The notes beneath the pieces were generated by a model that saw only the letters and a list, made by a program, of their open reading frames with translations, did no database searches and was not told where the DNA came from. From a virus, in the IMG/VR virus record IMGVR_UViG_3300049434_000014, positions 32,001 to 96,000 of that record: a stretch of 64,000 nt of DNA; one strand, written 5' to 3'. A program made the position numbers and the translations under genes. This document shows, in pieces, positions 20,943 through 63,978 of this stretch (the stretch's first letter is position 1; each line of letters opens with the position of its first letter).

Positions 20943-22835
20943 ATGGCTATTCAGCCATTTGTCACGAGGGAACAAGCCGCAGCCCTTCGAGCTGCGCAGT
21001 CTGGCTCTAGGCTCGGCAACTCACCGGGGTTGGGCAATGGTCGTGGTGGAAGCGCTCAGATGGCGTTTGCTCCCACCCAGGAGCAGGAAGCTATCCGCGA
21101 CGGGTATCGTACTGGCCAAGACATTGTGATTCGCGCCCTCGCGGGTACTGGTAAGACTACGTCGCTGGAGATGCTTGCTCGCGACGATCTTCTCAAGCGG
21201 ATGACTTATGTTGCTTTCAACCGCTCTATTGCCGACGAGGCCAGTCGGCGTTTCCCTTCCAACGTCACCGCAAAGACTATGCATTCTTTCGCGTTTGGTG
21301 CGGTGGGTCGCCATTTTGCTGATCGGCTGAATGGTCCGCGTGTGGAGGCTTGGAAGGTCGCAAACATCCTCGGGATCCCTGAGCGTTTTGAGTTCGGTGC
21401 GTTCTCGCTCCGCTCGCATCAGCTTGCTCGGCTGGTCATGGAGGCTGTCTCGCGGTTTTGTCATTCTGATGCTTCCGAGCCCAGTGCAAGCAATATCCCC
21501 AAGGTTCCGGGGTTGGCTTCGGACGATGCGCGTCGGGAGTTGACTCGGATGCTTTATCCGTTCGTCGTGCGGGCGTGGGAGGATCTGTCTGCGCATCAAG
21601 GTCAGCTTCGTTTCTCGCACGATATTTACCTTAAGCTGTGGGCGATGACTGATCCTCAGTTGCCCGGTGATGTTGTGCTGGCCGATGAGGCTCAAGACTT
21701 CGATCCGGTGATTAAGCAGATCGTTAGCAATCAACGGAATGCACAGCTCATCTACGTGGGCGATAGCAATCAGCAGATCTATGAGTGGAGGGGTGCGGTC
21801 GACGCTCTTGCTTCCATTCCCAACGCGTTGTCTTTCCCGCTGCAGAAGTCGTTTCGTTTCGGGCCGGTCATCGCAGCTGAGGCTAATCGGATTCTCGAGG
21901 TGCTGGGCTCGCCTCTGCGTTTGGAGGGACATGAGCCTGTTGACTCAAAGCTGGCATTCCTTCTGGATCGTGGTGCTGCAGATTGCGTATTGACTCGAAC
22001 CAATGCCGAGGCTATCGCACGCCTGATGAATGCTCAGATGGATGGCGTGCGGGCTGGGTTGGTCGGCGGAACGGCTCAGGTCGAGGCTCTCGCTAAGGCT
22101 GCTCTGGATTTGTCGGAAGGTCGCAAGACTACGCATCCTGAGTTGGTTGCTTTCAATTCGTGGAATCAGGTTCGGGAGTATGCCGCCGAGGATCCTGATG
22201 CCAAGGAGATCCAGGTGCTGGTTAAGCTGGTCGATCGACATGGCCCTTACGCGCTCCTGGAGGCCGTGCAGCGGGCTGTTCCTGAGCAGTCTGCGGACTT
22301 GCTCCTGTCAACGGCTCACAAGGGCAAAGGCAGGGAATGGAACCGTGTCCTGATCGCTGGTGACTTCTCTGATCCTCGTGATGAGGATACGGGTGAGTGG
22401 GTTCCCGGTGAGCTTCGTCTTGCCTACGTTGCGGTGACGCGGGCGAAGAAGTTTCTCGATTGTTCCAATCTTTCCTGGCTAACTGAGCTGGCGCATTTCA
22501 ATCGGAATGAAGACGATCCTCAGCGGTATTTCTTGACTCCTGAGGAGGTCCCTGAGCGTGAGGTTATTGAGGTCGCGGCTGACTCGGCTCCTTCCGAGCA
22601 GGTCATTCCTGATCCTGAAGACGCGACTCGCTTGATGTTCCGAGGGACGAAGTATGATCCTGAATTGGTAGTTGCTCAGCGCACGCTCCCTCGCAGTAAG
22701 TATTACGGTATTTACTGTGGGCACGAGAAAGTGCGTGTTGTGCTCGCCACCGCTCAGGCGTTGGCTGTTGCTGAACGGTTCGGATTGACGGTAAGTCAGG
22801 CAGCCCGCGAACGGGTCGCTGAGCTTGCCGGGTAG
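20943..22835 (+). CDS. UvrD/Rep-like SF1 helicase
   Basis: ALAGTGKTT, AFNR, DEAQD, VGD..QQIY.WRGA, SFRFG, STAHKGKG.EW and YVAVTRA motifs. Confidence 0.92.
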   Translation: MAIQPFVTREQAAALRAAQSGSRLGNSPGLGNGRGGSAQMAFAPTQEQEAIRDGYRTGQDIVIRALAGTGKTTSLEMLARDDLLKRMTYVAFNRSIADEASRRFPSNVTAKTMHSFAFGAVGRHFADRLNGPRVEAWKVANILGIPERFEFGAFSLRSHQLARLVMEAVSRFCHSDASEPSASNIPKVPGLASDDARRELTRMLYPFVVRAWEDLSAHQGQLRFSHDIYLKLWAMTDPQLPGDVVLADEAQDFDPVIKQIVSNQRNAQLIYVGDSNQQIYEWRGAVDALASIPNALSFPLQKSFRFGPVIAAEANRILEVLGSPLRLEGHEPVDSKLAFLLDRGAADCVLTRTNAEAIARLMNAQMDGVRAGLVGGTAQVEALAKAALDLSEGRKTTHPELVAFNSWNQVREYAAEDPDAKEIQVLVKLVDRHGPYALLEAVQRAVPEQSADLLLSTAHKGKGREWNRVLIAGDFSDPRDEDTGEWVPGELRLAYVAVTRAKKFLDCSNLSWLTELAHFNRNEDDPQRYFLTPEEVPEREVIEVAADSAPSEQVIPDPEDATRLMFRGTKYDPELVVAQRTLPRSKYYGIYCGHEKVRVVLATAQALAVAERFGLTVSQAARERVAELAG

Positions 22836-22898
22836 AATAAGAGTGCGGGGGTCGGGTTCCTACCAGATGCGCACCGGCCCCCGCTGATAACTAAATAT

Positions 22899-22970
22899 GC
22901 GTCGGTAGCTCAGAGGAAGAGCAGCTGCCTCTTAAGCAGCGGGTCGGGATATCGTAATTCCCTCGACGCA
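22899..22970 (+). tRNA. tRNA-Lys(CTT), atypical T-loop (ATCGTAA)
   Basis: Cloverleaf GCGTCGG/TCGACGC; anticodon arm GCTGC-CTCTTAA-GCAGC. Confidence 0.85.
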
Positions 22971-22971
22971 C

Positions 22972-23094
22972 GGGAGACCTGGACATGTCCTACCCCATAC
23001 TAAACTGATCCCGTGAGATATTGGGCCGATCCATGGTTCCTCTCTACACGTTCTGATGCTTAGGGTTGATCGCACGATTGGCCCTAAGCATCAG
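22972..23094 (+). ncRNA. structured ncRNA module copy A (pseudoknot-like core, CGTG/CACG helix, long hairpin)
   Basis: GACCTGGACATGTC...TAAACTGATCCC; related to the copies at 23402 and 23557. Confidence 0.5.
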
Positions 23095-23103
23095 GAAATG
23101 CAA

Positions 23104-23179
23104 GCCTCGATAGCTCAGCCTGGACGAGAGCAGATGCCTTTTAAGCATCGGGTCGTTGGTTCAAATCCAACTCGGGGTA
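23104..23179 (+). tRNA. tRNA-Lys(TTT)
   Basis: Canonical cloverleaf; GATGC-CTTTTAA-GCATC; GTTGG-TTCAAAT-CCAAC. Confidence 0.93.
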
Positions 23180-23390
23180 CGTGAAATTATATAGAACCCC
23201 TTCTGAGGTGCAATCCGCGCAGTTACGTTTTCGCTGGAGTTCTGAGAAAGCAGCTAGAGTTATTTCCCGACATCGGGAATACTATATTCCAGTTGTAGAT
23301 TTTGTTAAACCTAATTGGTTCCCGTTGGCAACACTCAGTTTGAGTGTAGTTACGAATTGTGTAACAATTTTAGTTGCTTTGCTGATAAAA

Positions 23391-23770
23391 TAAACTGTAT
23401 TGGTGACCAGGCACATGTCACTGATTCCTTCACCGGGTCTACTAAACTGTACCCGTGCTGCCAAGTCCCTTCCTCGGACATCGCCAAGCACGTTAAATGG
23501 TTATGCCTCCTCGGTAAGGCGCCTTACCGAGGAGGTAACATAAATTAAACTGTATTGGGGGACCTGGAGTAAGTCCGCTAAACTACTCCCGTGTTTTGCA
23601 CGTTAAACAGTTCCCGACAGGATCGTTATGGAGGGTGCACCTTTCGGATGATCCTGTCGGGAACGCTAATGACGAATACTAATCTCGGTCGTCGGGAGTC
23701 AAGGCTGTCTTTCGCAGATCCACGGGTATTAGTCATCACCGGAGAGTTAAGGTTCGTTCGGCCGGTTTTT
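23391..23770 (+). ncRNA. structured ncRNA modules B and C plus further hairpins
   Basis: TAAACTGTATTGG repeated at 23391 and 23547; long stems CCTCCTCGGTAAGG/CCTTACCGAGGAGG and GTTCCCGACAGGATC/GATCCTGTCGGGAAC. Confidence 0.55.
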
Positions 23771-23912
23771 ATTGCGATACTTCCTTACCGGCTGCATCTT
23801 CATCTTGATGAACGTTCCTGCTCCCGACGACCTTCGACTTGACATGCATGGTCGTGTATGGTTGGGTAGTACTAGACAAGGTTGCAAGGTCGAGCGAGAA
23901 GGCGGTAAAGCC

Positions 23913-25139
23913 ATGCAGGTTACGGAGTTGTTCTCCAATGAGGCGCTTGGGGAGATGGTTGCTGCGGGTTATGTGCGTATGCAGCGGCATCCTCGTTTCC
24001 ACGATGGCGTCCCTTACGTCATCTTCAATTACACGGAGACCGCTGCTTACGAGCGTGTGTGGAATCCGGTCACTGAGGTGTGTCGTGGCTTGATTGTGAA
24101 CAACGCGACGCTCGAGGTTGTCGCACGTCCGTTCCGTAAGTTCTTTAATTACGGTGAGCCTGGCTCTCCTGTTCTCCATATGGATGAGGGTGCGGACGTC
24201 TATGACAAACTAGACGGCTCGCTCGGCATTCTTTACCAGCTTCCTGATGGCGAATATGCGATTGCCACGCGCGGTTCGTTTGATTCCGAGCAGGCTCGCC
24301 ACGCCACAAAGGTGTGGCAGGATCGCTACGCGGGCAAGTTCACTCCCTATCCTGGCGGCACTTATCTGTTTGAGATCATCTATCGTGCCAATCGCATTGT
24401 CTGCGACTATGGGGACATGGACGATCTCGTGTTGCTCGGTGCTGTCGACATTGAGACTGGTGTTTCTTTTACGCCTCACGAGGGTGAGGCGATTGGTGAG
24501 TGGCCTGGCCCTAAGGCTGAGATGTTTCAGTACTGGTCGCTGGCAGCTGCTCTGGCAGCGCCTCCCCGTCCGGGTAAGGAGGGCTTCGTCCTTCGGCGTT
24601 GGCATTCCGAGGATCGCATTAAGATCAAGCAGGATGATTACGTTGCGTTGCACCGGATCATTACGAATTGCACGGCGCGTCGGATCTGGGAATACCTCGC
24701 GGTGTTCGCTTGCCAACCTTATGCGACAACGGGCGTTGAGTTCTTAGTGCGTAAGTTGATGATGGGTCCTGCTGACATTAATCGGATCCTCGCGGTTGGC
24801 TCTAACTGGCTGGAGACTTTCCTGGTTGGTACTCCGGAGGAGTTTCGTGATTGGGTGCAGGACAAGGTGTGGGAATTCCTTAGGGCTCGCACGTCGCGTT
24901 TGCAGGATCTGGAGTTGTCTTTGCATCTGATGTTGGCTACAGCGGATGTCCCTCGCTCTGCGGTCGGCGGTCCGTCTCGTGAAGAGGCTAAGGCGTTCGC
25001 CGCAGCGGGTCGGTCTCATCCTGATTTTCAGCTGCTTATGACCATGCTTCGTGGCCATGAGATCGAGTCGACTATTTGGCGTGAGCTGCGCCCTGCCCAC
25101 GAGCTTCCTTACCGGGCAGTGGATGAGTCTGTGGCTTAG
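23913..25139 (+). CDS. T4 Rnl1-like RNA ligase
   Basis: CRGLI, ARPF.KFFNY.E, KLDGSLG (motif I), ATRGSF.S, FEII, EGFV (IV) and KIK (V). Confidence 0.92.
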   Translation: MQVTELFSNEALGEMVAAGYVRMQRHPRFHDGVPYVIFNYTETAAYERVWNPVTEVCRGLIVNNATLEVVARPFRKFFNYGEPGSPVLHMDEGADVYDKLDGSLGILYQLPDGEYAIATRGSFDSEQARHATKVWQDRYAGKFTPYPGGTYLFEIIYRANRIVCDYGDMDDLVLLGAVDIETGVSFTPHEGEAIGEWPGPKAEMFQYWSLAAALAAPPRPGKEGFVLRRWHSEDRIKIKQDDYVALHRIITNCTARRIWEYLAVFACQPYATTGVEFLVRKLMMGPADINRILAVGSNWLETFLVGTPEEFRDWVQDKVWEFLRARTSRLQDLELSLHLMLATADVPRSAVGGPSREEAKAFAAAGRSHPDFQLLMTMLRGHEIESTIWRELRPAHELPYRAVDESVA

Positions 25140-26481: not shown

Positions 26482-27516
26482 ATGCACGAGGATATGGTGT
26501 CTGCGATGCAGCCGGTCGAGGCTGATGTCGAGTCTTTGCCTGACTTCCCTACTGAGTTGATCCTGACGCGTGGCCTTCCCGGTTGCGGTAAGACAACGTG
26601 GGCTCGCTTGATTCTGGAAGTGGAGCGCTCCAAGGGTCGACGGATTGTTCGGGTTAATCGCGATGACTTGCGTCGCATGGCTTTGCCTTCCGGGTATGGC
26701 AAGCCTGACTTCGCGACGGAAAAGGAGATCTCTGCGATTCGGGATGCCGCGCTCGAGCATTGGTTGTCGGCTGGCGTTTCGGTCATTGTTGATGACACCA
26801 ATCTTCGTATGCGTTTTGCTCGTGATCTGGCTGATCTCGCGGAGCGGTTGGGTGTGGAGTTGGTTGTCGTTGACTTCTTTGAAGTCGATCTCGACACTTG
26901 CCTTGCACGCAATGAGGATCGTCATGGTACTGAAAGCTACGTGCCTCCGTGGGTGATCAAAGATATGTATGGTCGTTACCTGGCTGGCTCTAAGCCGGGT
27001 CCTGTTCTCCCTCGCCCGACAGCGTGGCAGTCTGCGGTCGTGCCTTACGAGCCTGTTTACGGTGCTCCTGAGATTGCGCTGGTTGATCTCGACGGCACGG
27101 TTGCTTTGCTCAATGGGCGAGGTGCTTACGATGAGTCTTGCGTTTCAGAAGACTTGCCCAATCACCCAGTGATTGAAGCTGTGCAGGCAATGGCTGGTCT
27201 CGGTCGGTGGGAACGAATGAGTCAACATGATCGGACGATCGGTTTGGTATTCATGTCTGGTCGTACTGAGGCGTGTCGTGTGAGTACTACTGATTGGCTT
27301 TCCACGCATCTCGGTATTGCTCCCGAAGATGTCGTGTTGCACATGCGCGATATCGGCGATCAGCGTCCTGACCGTGAGGTAAAGTTGGAGCTGTTCAATA
27401 AGCACATTCGTCATCGGTTCGAGGTTCGTTGCGTTTTTGATGATCGTGTGAGCGTTGTTGAATTGTGGCGCCAGCTCGGGCTAGTGTGTTTCCAGGTGGC
27501 TGATGGGAAATTCTAA
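26482..27516 (+). CDS. pseT: polynucleotide 5'-kinase/3'-phosphatase (T4 PseT-like)
   Basis: GLPGCGKTT and NRDDLR kinase motifs; DLDGT, SGR and FDDR HAD phosphatase motifs. Confidence 0.93.
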   Translation: MHEDMVSAMQPVEADVESLPDFPTELILTRGLPGCGKTTWARLILEVERSKGRRIVRVNRDDLRRMALPSGYGKPDFATEKEISAIRDAALEHWLSAGVSVIVDDTNLRMRFARDLADLAERLGVELVVVDFFEVDLDTCLARNEDRHGTESYVPPWVIKDMYGRYLAGSKPGPVLPRPTAWQSAVVPYEPVYGAPEIALVDLDGTVALLNGRGAYDESCVSEDLPNHPVIEAVQAMAGLGRWERMSQHDRTIGLVFMSGRTEACRVSTTDWLSTHLGIAPEDVVLHMRDIGDQRPDREVKLELFNKHIRHRFEVRCVFDDRVSVVELWRQLGLVCFQVADGKF

Positions 27517-63464: not shown

Positions 63465-63535
63465 GGCTTCATAGACTAATGGCAGGTCACTAGCCTCTCA
63501 AGCTAGGAGTACGGGTTCGACCCCCGTTGGAGCTA
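63465..63535 (+). tRNA. tRNA-Glu(CTC)
   Basis: GGCTTCA/TGGAGCT acceptor; CTAGC-CTCTCAA-GCTAG; ACGGG-TTCGACC-CCCGT. Confidence 0.85.
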
Positions 63536-63547
63536 CGTTTGTATTAA

Positions 63548-63617
63548 CGTTCCGTGGTGTAGGGATAGCACGCCGGTCACGGGACCGGTAGTCCACGTTT
63601 AACTCGTGGCGGAACGA
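63548..63617 (+). tRNA. tRNA-like gene with non-canonical anticodon loop (identity undetermined)
   Basis: CGTTCCG/CGGAACG acceptor; CCGGT-CACGGG-ACCGG (6-nt loop); CCACG-TTTAACT-CGTGG. Confidence 0.6.
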
Positions 63618-63664
63618 CGCACGGCCTAGGATCGCCTCTGCTTCGGGCATGCGCCTAGGTCTCT

Positions 63665-63738
63665 CGGGATGTAGGGAAGCCAGGTATCCCACCTGTTTTG
63701 GGTACAGGAAGCCGCAGGTTCGAATCCTGCCGTCCCGA
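63665..63738 (+). tRNA. tRNA-Pro(TGG)
   Basis: CGGGATG/CGTCCCG; CCTGT-TTTGGGT-ACAGG; GCAGG-TTCGAAT-CCTGC. Confidence 0.9.
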
Positions 63739-63740
63739 CT

Positions 63741-63816
63741 GGATGGATGTAGCTCAATGATAGAGCCCTTGGATTAACGTCTAAGGAGACGTGGGTTTGA
63801 TTCCCGCCACCATCCT
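63741..63816 (+). tRNA. tRNA-like gene with bulged acceptor stem and 8-nt anticodon loop (identity undetermined)
   Basis: TAGCTCAATGATAGAGC D-arm; CTTGG-ATTAACGT-CTAAG; GTGGG-TTTGATT-CCCGC. Confidence 0.6.
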
Positions 63817-63820
63817 TCAT

Positions 63821-63894
63821 GGTGAATGTAGCTCAAATGGCAGAGCGCCTGATTGTGGGTCAGGTCGTTGCGGGTTCGATTCCCGTCGTTCACC
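63821..63894 (+). tRNA. tRNA-His(GTG)
   Basis: G-1; GTGAATG/CGTTCAC; CCTGA-TTGTGGG-TCAGG. Confidence 0.92.
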
Positions 63895-63978
63895 CCGAGA
63901 GGGACGGAGTCCAAAGCACATATGGTACCTGTTGCTAGGACTTAAACGACAATGTTATGTGTGTCCGTCCTTCTCCTA

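Follow-up and report, generated by a model that had tools for sequence, protein, structure and literature searches.

A threefold non-coding repeat with putative promoter boxes beside the tRNA-Lys genes of an uncultured phage

The tRNA cluster of phage T4 encodes small stable RNAs, species 1 and species 2 (rnaD and rnaC), that are cut from the tRNA precursor, and ToxI units, i.e., near-identical 36-nt direct tandem repeats, adjoin the toxN gene. To our knowledge, the small RNAs of actinobacterial phages have received very little attention. Theta ribozymes, which are HDV-like, lie downstream of phage tRNAs and cut the 3' trailer (PMC10879173). Here we describe a threefold repeat located beside two tRNA-Lys genes in an uncultured, metagenomic phage (IMG/VR record IMGVR_UViG_3300049434_000014). 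The window analyzed, a stretch of 64,000 nucleotides, represents positions 32001-96000 of the 153,455-bp genome, which has direct terminal repeats and a G+C content of 54%; coordinates are those of the window unless specified as genome positions, and the features of the repeat locus are on the + strand. The repeat is hosted by a non-coding stretch of approx. 1.08 kb bounded by the genes for a UvrD-type helicase and an RNA ligase. While an earlier note on this DNA had interpreted the copies as sharing an H-type pseudoknot in which TAAACT is a fixed linker, our analyses suggest that TAAACT is more likely a promoter -10 box, and we tentatively favor, with somewhat less than even confidence, a reading of the copies as three paralogous promoter-driven small-RNA cassettes, one of which would also lead into tRNA-Lys(UUU).

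Sequence reading combined with repeat and pattern searches placed the three copies at 22972-23052 (copy A), 23402-23494 (copy B) and 23557-23604 (copy C). All three show the same order of blocks, i.e., GG(G/T)(A/G/T)GACC(T/A)GG, GTC, (T/C)(A/G)CTAAACT-N3-CCCGTG, an insert, CACGTT and a long hairpin; the insert between GTG and CAC comprises 31 nt in A and in B and 5 nt in C, and the long hairpins, each of approx. 20 bp or more, are unrelated in sequence. Copy A begins on the first base past tRNA-Lys(CTT) (22899..22971; ARAGORN; Rfam tRNA, 47.8 bits), while B and C are preceded by a 19-mer, ATAAA(A/T)TAAACTGTATTGG, that is 95% identical between them, and also have GCACGTTAAA(T/C)(G/A)GTT in common. 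The earlier note's account of the three-copy repeat, its block order with CGTG...CACGTT, the unrelated hairpin after each copy, the sequence shared ahead of B and C and the start of A at the tRNA 3' end was thus borne out. The joint pattern has three matches in the 153,455-bp genome and none in a reversed control, and, of the genome's 11 TAAACT hexamers on the plus strand, 5 fall within these 600 bp; this clustering is far beyond chance.

The locus shares single features with each of several described RNAs. Like theta ribozymes, copy A starts on the first base after a phage tRNA; unlike them, the repeat matches no HDV-family model in Rfam and lacks a nested double pseudoknot, and neither B nor C follows a tRNA; on inspection, the 5' G-run and the small hairpin are not separated by any stretch able to form a P2 helix. 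ToxI and phage pseudo-ToxI are also repeated phage-borne RNA units for which a pseudoknot can be drawn; the units described here, on the other hand, are 130-155 nt long, diverged, and spaced 430 and 155 nt apart. Being neither tandem nor identical, and having as neighbors a UvrD-type helicase, an Rnl1 ligase and a polynucleotide kinase-phosphatase (PNKP) with no toxN-like gene among them, they lend no support to the ToxI mimic that had been put forward. This candidate, together with the ribozyme and the nuclease-resistant element proposed alongside it, also drew no HDV, hatchet, pistol, twister, hammerhead, xrRNA or ToxI match in Rfam at E<=10. T4 species 1 and 2 resemble the units as short structured non-coding RNAs between phage tRNA genes, where they are co-expressed; they show no sequence or Rfam relation to the units, which appear to have their own promoter boxes.

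The 6C RNA of Actinobacteria, which has C/U-rich, anti-Shine-Dalgarno-like loops, is a promoter-driven two-hairpin RNA, as is predicted here, and the 7-nt loop CUUCCUC of unit B and UUCCUCUCU of unit A are similar to its loops. These two sequences hint at Shine-Dalgarno pairing, against which it must be noted that the three units do not have a conserved loop and that unit C has none of this kind; in addition, there is no Rfam match to 6C. The small RNAs might serve as regulators, by way of pyrimidine-rich (anti-Shine-Dalgarno-like) loops, or as decoys. We rate the element as an apparent orphan among phage small-RNA genes in a tRNA region; its nearest known counterparts are ordinary TANNNT promoters of actinobacteria, the small stable RNAs of the T4 tRNA cluster and two-hairpin small RNAs transcribed from a promoter.

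Part of the evidence for a promoter function comes from the placement of TAAACT. In actinobacteria, a TANNNT -10 consensus is found at 73% of primary Mycobacterium tuberculosis start sites (PMC3898074) and at 80% of Streptomyces coelicolor start sites (PMC4895711), and such promoters need no strong -35 element and start at a purine a few bases downstream, the TANNNT box being the main determinant of promoters in leaderless genes (PMC3898074, PMC4895711). The repeat has five TAAACT boxes, i.e., an internal box in A (23001..23006; predicted +1, G23013 of GTG), an upstream and an internal box in B (23391..23396, within ATAAAATAAACTGTATTGG, and 23443..23448; predicted +1, G23403 and G23455, each of GTG), and an upstream and an internal box in C (23546..23551, within ATAAATTAAACTGTATTGG, and 23579..23584; predicted +1, G23558 of GGG and G23591 of GTG). 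All five are thus TANNNT hexamers on the transcribed strand, located 6-7 nt upstream of a predicted purine start; the distance to the G is exactly 6 nt in every case, and this G opens a GTG in four cases and a GGG at 23558. TAAACT is mostly continued by GTA, and TAAACTGTA is common to both boxes of B and the upstream box of C. As TAAACT followed by GTA recurs before B and C, outside the proposed fold, the motif appears to work as a stand-alone signal, and the description of TAAACT as a fixed linker within a conserved pseudoknot is not supported.

The same arrangement is used by bacteria. Scans of sequence collections, in which loci were chosen by CTAAACT-N3-CCCGTG and one flanking block only, found many bacterial loci where the GTG opens a full-length protein with an in-frame TAA 4 codons upstream and where Pfam profiles set in with their first positions within a few residues of the GTG. 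In genomes of Streptomyces, Mycobacterium and others, this exact 16-mer, CTAAACT-N3-CCC-GTG, is located at the head of real genes, including those for valyl-tRNA synthetase (873 aa; two Streptomyces species), a class-V aminotransferase, a GT4 glycosyltransferase, a Crp-family regulator, Tmk (position 1 of the Pfam profile at residue 6) and RecO (position 3 at residue 5). In the valS, tmk and recO loci, the upstream in-frame TAA comes from the -10 box itself. This use in leaderless genes identifies CTAAACT-N3-CCC-GTG as a known promoter-plus-start configuration. The phage boxes resemble actinobacterial housekeeping-sigma promoters in the TANNNT hexamer, the purine 6 nt downstream, the GTG at +1 and the lack of a clear -35 element; they differ in that the phage "start codons" open frames without coding signal, that five predicted boxes fall within 600 bp and that the middle AAC is invariant. 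A conserved A/T-rich "linker" in a candidate RNA motif can be a plain -10 box in high-G+C hosts, which calls for caution.

A sixth box may drive the first tRNA gene. The -10-like hexamer TAGAAT (22833..22838, within GGGTAGAAT; its TAG is the helicase stop codon, 22833-22835) lies 6 nt before 22845, the first base of an 11-bp G+C-rich hairpin ahead of tRNA-Lys(CTT) (GCGGGGGTCGG/CCGGCCCCCGC, 22845..22884; 91% complementary, inverted-repeat search). This layout is the same as in the three units, and judging by it TAGAAT probably represents the promoter of the tRNA-Lys(CTT) unit. When 90-nt segments were folded, a local hairpin began at +1 for 4 of these 6 boxes as compared to 1 of 11 other TANNNT sites of the region (the background rate is 0.15 when all positions are counted and 0.28 when only those with a G are); this enrichment gives the predicted promoters moderate support. 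Just past the long hairpin of C, a TAATCT occurs at 23680 within ATACTAATCT (23676-23685), which is identical to ATACTAAACT of copy A at 9 of 10 positions; this is possibly another, degenerate box.

If each TAAACT acts as a -10 hexamer of the housekeeping-sigma type (TANNNT), transcription would start from the G 6 nt downstream, and the internal boxes at 23001, 23443 and 23579 would yield RNAs of approx. 80-90 nt of one design, i.e., a stem-loop from nucleotide +1 closed by GUG/CAC, a GUU(AAA) linker, and a capping or ending hairpin of approx. 20 bp or more. The corresponding segments (23013-23100, 23455-23545 and 23591-23670) do adopt the same two-hairpin fold, with z scores of -5.20, -5.71 and -7.56, respectively, and with the GUU(AAA) linker single-stranded. 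The 5' stem-loop of this fold comprises 37 nt in A (23013..23049; closed by GUG/CAC, with an inner hairpin having the 7-nt loop GAUCCAU, followed by GTT), 37 nt in B (23455..23491; closed by GUG/CAC, with the inner hairpin GUCC(CUUCCUC)GGAC that carries the pyrimidine-rich loop, followed by GTTAAA) and 11 nt in C (23591..23601; the mini stem-loop GUGU(UUU)GCAC, followed by GTTAAA). The long hairpins, found by inverted-repeat search and folding, extend over 23053..23094 in A (20-nt arms, 85% complementary), 23504..23537 in B (15 perfect bp, extendable to 28-nt arms) and 23610..23664 in C (an outer stem of 15 perfect bp plus an inner helix). The earlier description of a non-coding, strongly hairpinned repeat therefore agrees with our results, as no coding signal was detected either (see below).

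Transcription from the upstream boxes at 23391 (B) and 23546 (C) would add 5'-extended isoforms, starting at the small GACCWGG hairpin in B and 2 nt before it in C. In B, this hairpin, GUGAC(CAGGCACAU)GUCAC (23403..23421, from folding; stem 1 of the pseudoknot proposed earlier), has its 5' end exactly at the predicted +1; in C, it is GGAC(CUGGAGUAA)GUCC (23560..23576, from sequence and pair counts; again the proposed stem 1). For unit A, in which the 5' block GGGAGACC contains the small hairpin GAC(8 nt)GTC (22972..22990; sequence, repeat search), an equivalent 5' end would come from 3' processing of tRNA-Lys(CTT), and the transcript would run on into tRNA-Lys(UUU), such that unit A would represent the promoter and leader of this tRNA. 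TAAACT could possibly be used twice, as a box in the DNA and as a loop in the longer isoform. Both the firing of the boxes in this phage and the RNA ends are predictions. The host polymerase would read the cassettes, and the RNAs would be early.

If the boxes are promoters, approx. 700 bp of a large actinophage-like genome would be devoted to several short hairpin RNAs, located between its pair of tRNA-Lys genes and its T4-type tRNA-repair enzymes, and the host polymerase would make these RNAs without phage factors, which is the timing expected of counter-defense or host take-over RNAs. Judged by genomic position only, a role in a tRNA-Lys/Rnl1/PNKP RNA-repair and counter-defense locus would be plausible. 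The long hairpins would serve as terminators, RNase III sites or stabilizers.

Several observations weigh against the cassette reading. No terminator-like sites were found in 22700-24000, and the long hairpins lack the combination of a G+C-rich stem and a U-tract that characterizes intrinsic terminators, being followed by GGAAAT (A), TAACAT (B) and GCTAAT (C); given the missing U-tract, they may be RNase III sites or 3' stabilizers rather than terminators. The boxes at 23546 and 23579 give no local hairpin at +1 in the 90-nt folds. The middle AAC is invariant in all five boxes and CCC in all three internal ones, while TANNNT alone needs neither; an extra RNA-level or factor-specific constraint is therefore likely. 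In copy A, which starts at the tRNA 3' end and lacks an upstream box, GACCWGG..GTC is nevertheless retained, in keeping with an RNA-level role of the 5' block. A consistent -35 element is missing, and the distance from GACC to the box varies (20, 34 and 14 nt). Finally, TAAACT is not in wide use elsewhere in the phage genome, of which the main promoter-like class, GGGTAG(G/T)AC, looks different; the single other TAAACT-N6-ATG site (genome position 10536) is ambiguous, as a better, Shine-Dalgarno-led GTG start lies downstream. Two further sigma-type assignments were rejected, i.e., GACC as a Streptomyces -35 element (NTGACC), for which the spacers would be 20, 34 and 14 nt, and an extracytoplasmic function (ECF)-type promoter (AAC-N17-CGTT), which fits copy C alone.

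The invariance of AAC and CCC beyond what a -10 box requires, and the 5' block of copy A, which begins at a tRNA 3' end as theta ribozymes do (PMC10879173), are also what would be expected if each copy represented one structured RNA domain, as the earlier note proposed. This domain would comprise an H-type pseudoknot (stem 1, GAC/GUC; stem 2, a loop GGNNN pairing with NNNCC; an A-rich loop 3, CUAAACU), a CGUG/CACG clamp hairpin and the long hairpin, and its role would lie in the RNA itself, be it that of a processing signal, of a decoy or inhibitor in a tRNA-Lys conflict, or of a nuclease-resistant element. The short kept blocks separated by variable inserts (2 to 22 nt before CUAAACU; 5 as compared to 31 nt in the CGUG/CACG loop) are typical of structured RNAs, copy C alone forms a clean H-type pseudoknot (4 + 5 bp) with stem 2 present in its minimum-energy fold, and two stem-2 pairs and one stem-1 extension pair differ on both sides between B and C.

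We nevertheless consider this explanation unlikely. When stem pairs were counted by script in a fixed register under the earlier model, stem 2 showed 3/5 standard pairs in A, 4/5 in B (with an internal C.A mismatch) and 5/5 in C, while a nested rival helix, in which the 5' G-run pairs with the same 3' strand (GGGA/UCCC, GGU/ACC and GGGG/UCCC), performed equally well or better (4/5, 4/5 and 5/5, respectively) and has one pair that is A-U in A but U-A in B, or vice versa. Random N3+CCC segments equaled the observed contiguous pairing in 36% (A), 42% (B) and 31% (C) of trials; the reported covariation of stem 1 and the loop-to-3' pairing is thus not substantiated, with stem 2 complementarity at chance level. 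As no homologues were found (see below), covariation can be judged on three paralogues only. The 5' domains alone carried no thermodynamic signal as compared to dinucleotide shuffles (z = +0.60, -1.08 and +0.15), and RNAalifold, applied to a hand-curated alignment of the copies, reached only -8 kcal/mol with no convincing common fold. Moreover, the partner of CCC is not conserved because, in the minimum-energy fold of copy B, it is a GGGU inside the B-specific insert. An H-type pseudoknot as a feature common to the copies is therefore not supported, and the supposed linker, as described above, repeats outside the fold. A more specific variant appears very unlikely, i.e., an undescribed class of phage structured RNA in which a pseudoknotted or clamp domain would present CUAAACU (with the lysine codon AAA) next to a long protective hairpin, acting in a tRNA-Lys conflict beside the two phage tRNA-Lys genes, Rnl1 and PNKP, e.g., by serving as decoy for, or inhibitor of, a lysine-specific anticodon nuclease or by sensing whether tRNA-Lys is intact, with the TAAACT elements doubling as promoters.

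As box-N6-GTG is the layout of leaderless genes, the GTGs could also start leader peptides of 16 (A) and 13 codons (B) in leaderless micro-open reading frames that act as attenuators; ribosomes would melt or expose the next hairpin and so set read-through into the tRNA-Lys(UUU) gene and the RNA-repair genes farther downstream. The stop codons are suitably placed, with the A frame ending at TAG 23061-23063, within the 5' arm of hairpin A and directly before tRNA-Lys(UUU), and the B frame at TAA 23494-23496, 8 nt before hairpin B. The peptides, however, are dissimilar, Lys codons are absent from all three frames, CACGTT is in another frame in C, and the C frame runs for 83 codons through its hairpin. 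Coding potential was assessed as codon-usage log-odds against real gene segments of the same phage. Frames from the GTGs (16, 46, 13 and 83 codons) scored 0.03, 0.03, -0.24 and -0.07, respectively, while real gene segments of 46 and 83 codons had a median near 0.34 (5th percentiles of 0.09 and 0.14, respectively) and the ligase gene scored 0.41. The repeat stretch is non-coding, with a codon usage unlike that of phage genes. Since the hairpins also lack U-tracts and no alternative antiterminator pairing is evident, we give attenuation little credence.

Slightly less credence is given to a signal at the DNA or polymerase level other than a promoter, i.e., sites for sigma-dependent pausing, antiterminator loading or binding of a phage regulator. 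The identical hexamer up- and downstream in B and C, followed by strong hairpins, does resemble a promoter followed by a -10-like pause element and then a terminator, and the invariance of all six bases suggests a recognition stricter than TANNNT. The spacing between boxes, on the other hand, is not fixed (52 nt in B as compared to 33 nt in C), copy A lacks an upstream promoter box, the genes adjoining the locus include none identified as Q-like or as coding for a regulator, and GC skew is positive throughout, with no origin-like switch at the locus that would indicate a replication origin.

Searches for relatives of the element were carried out at several levels. Against Rfam 15, only the tRNAs pass at gathering thresholds, and at E<=10, using 1.1 kb and 136-139-nt pieces, nothing was matched on the conserved 5' domains, while the long hairpins draw spurious miRNA-type matches and a SAM-III match of 14 bits (threshold, 45). 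Families without an Rfam match include preQ1-I/II/III, SAM-II/V, fluoride, 6C, Y RNA, GOLLD and ROOL; this agrees with the earlier note, which could not assign the RNA to a family. BLASTN against 50,697 phage records matched the tRNAs alone, and Rhodococcus phage Dorin carries the same tRNA-Lys pair without the module. When IMG/VR, JGI metagenomes and GTDB genomes were scanned for exact patterns, no true homologue emerged, the matches being chance, a coding lysozyme region or bacterial leaderless promoters. Among 50 loci around related RNA ligases (best, 58% identity), the motif was not found upstream and synteny was not shared; Streptomyces phages Circinus and Patelgo have no comparable non-coding stretch, and five complete genomes of related phages matched the locus in BLAST at the tRNAs only. 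An nhmmer profile built from the three copies found no fourth copy in the phage's own genome and none in approx. 340 fetched loci. Transfer RNA models matched nothing but the two tRNA-Lys genes; tRNA-like or anticodon-loop mimicry of tRNA-Lys was rejected, as the units show no consistent 7-nt Lys-like loop and no further tRNA model match.

One candidate fourth copy, at genome position 99146 (TAGCACATGTCAG..TAAACT..GTG), was rejected, as it represents the 5' end of a gene for a DEDD-type exonuclease. This region (genome positions 99103-99700, approx. 3.1 kb past the window end) shows GGGTAGAAC and then TAAACT directly before the gene, with the GTG start just 4 nt past TAAACT; the product starts with ..WLDFETSGLD, a DEDD (DnaQ-like) motif.

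The absence of homologues from the collections searched would also be expected if the copies were decaying duplication remnants without a function of their own, e.g., old copies of a promoter-leader-tRNA cassette, and hairpin A does repeat the anticodon stem of the adjoining tRNA. Against this explanation, short blocks are identical while the intervening sequence has diverged beyond recognition, and three hairpins of approx. 20 bp or more, unrelated to each other, occupy equivalent positions. Identical blocks and hairpins kept in place point to selection, and we regard decay as highly improbable. The repetition in hairpin A involves its outer 7 bp (CUGAUGC/GCAUCAG, continuing into UUA../..UAA), which match the anticodon stem and loop edges (23131-23156) of tRNA-Lys(TTT) (23104..23180; ARAGORN; Rfam tRNA, 62.1 bits), with TAAGCATCAGG and TAAGCATCGGG matching at 10 of 11 positions. 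Alternatively, hairpin A could use its 5' arm to pair with the 3' strand of this anticodon arm (15 nt, 80%). This likeness may be accidental (P of roughly 0.01, uncorrected for multiple testing), or it may be a trace of a duplication or of an alternative folding of the precursor.

Downstream of the repeat, the RNA ligase gene (23913..25139; ATG at 23913; T4 Rnl1-type; Pfam RNA_lig_T4_1, 2.3e-13), ahead of which GGGTAGTAC is located at 23864, encodes a protein approx. 40% identical to Streptomyces and Arthrobacter phage ligases, with the closest metagenomic relative at 58%. The PNKP gene is located at 26482..27516 (Pfam HAD_PNKP, 1.2e-40, plus a P-loop kinase domain). Following tRNA-Lys(TTT), an AT-rich spacer (23181-23392) with a G+C content of 39-40% represents the second-lowest stretch of the genome; it has a fold z score of -2.82, with a long-range helix of AAAGCAGCUAGAGUU with AAUUUUAGUUGCUUU around four small hairpins, and may be a further non-coding RNA. 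A second tRNA cluster begins at 63465-63896 with an ARAGORN "tRNA-???" with a two-base anticodon (63548-63618) and a weak tRNA (63743-63814; Rfam, 31.6 bits) without an ARAGORN call. The non-coding tail before the RNA ligase gene (23665..23863) has a fold z score of -1.12 and contains a perfect 12-bp inverted repeat (23687-23698/23821-23832; GGTCGTCGGGAG/CTCCCGACGACC) with 122 nt between the arms, for which approx. 0.04 occurrences would be expected by chance in the stretch; the domain closed by this repeat contains GGCCGGTTTTTATT.

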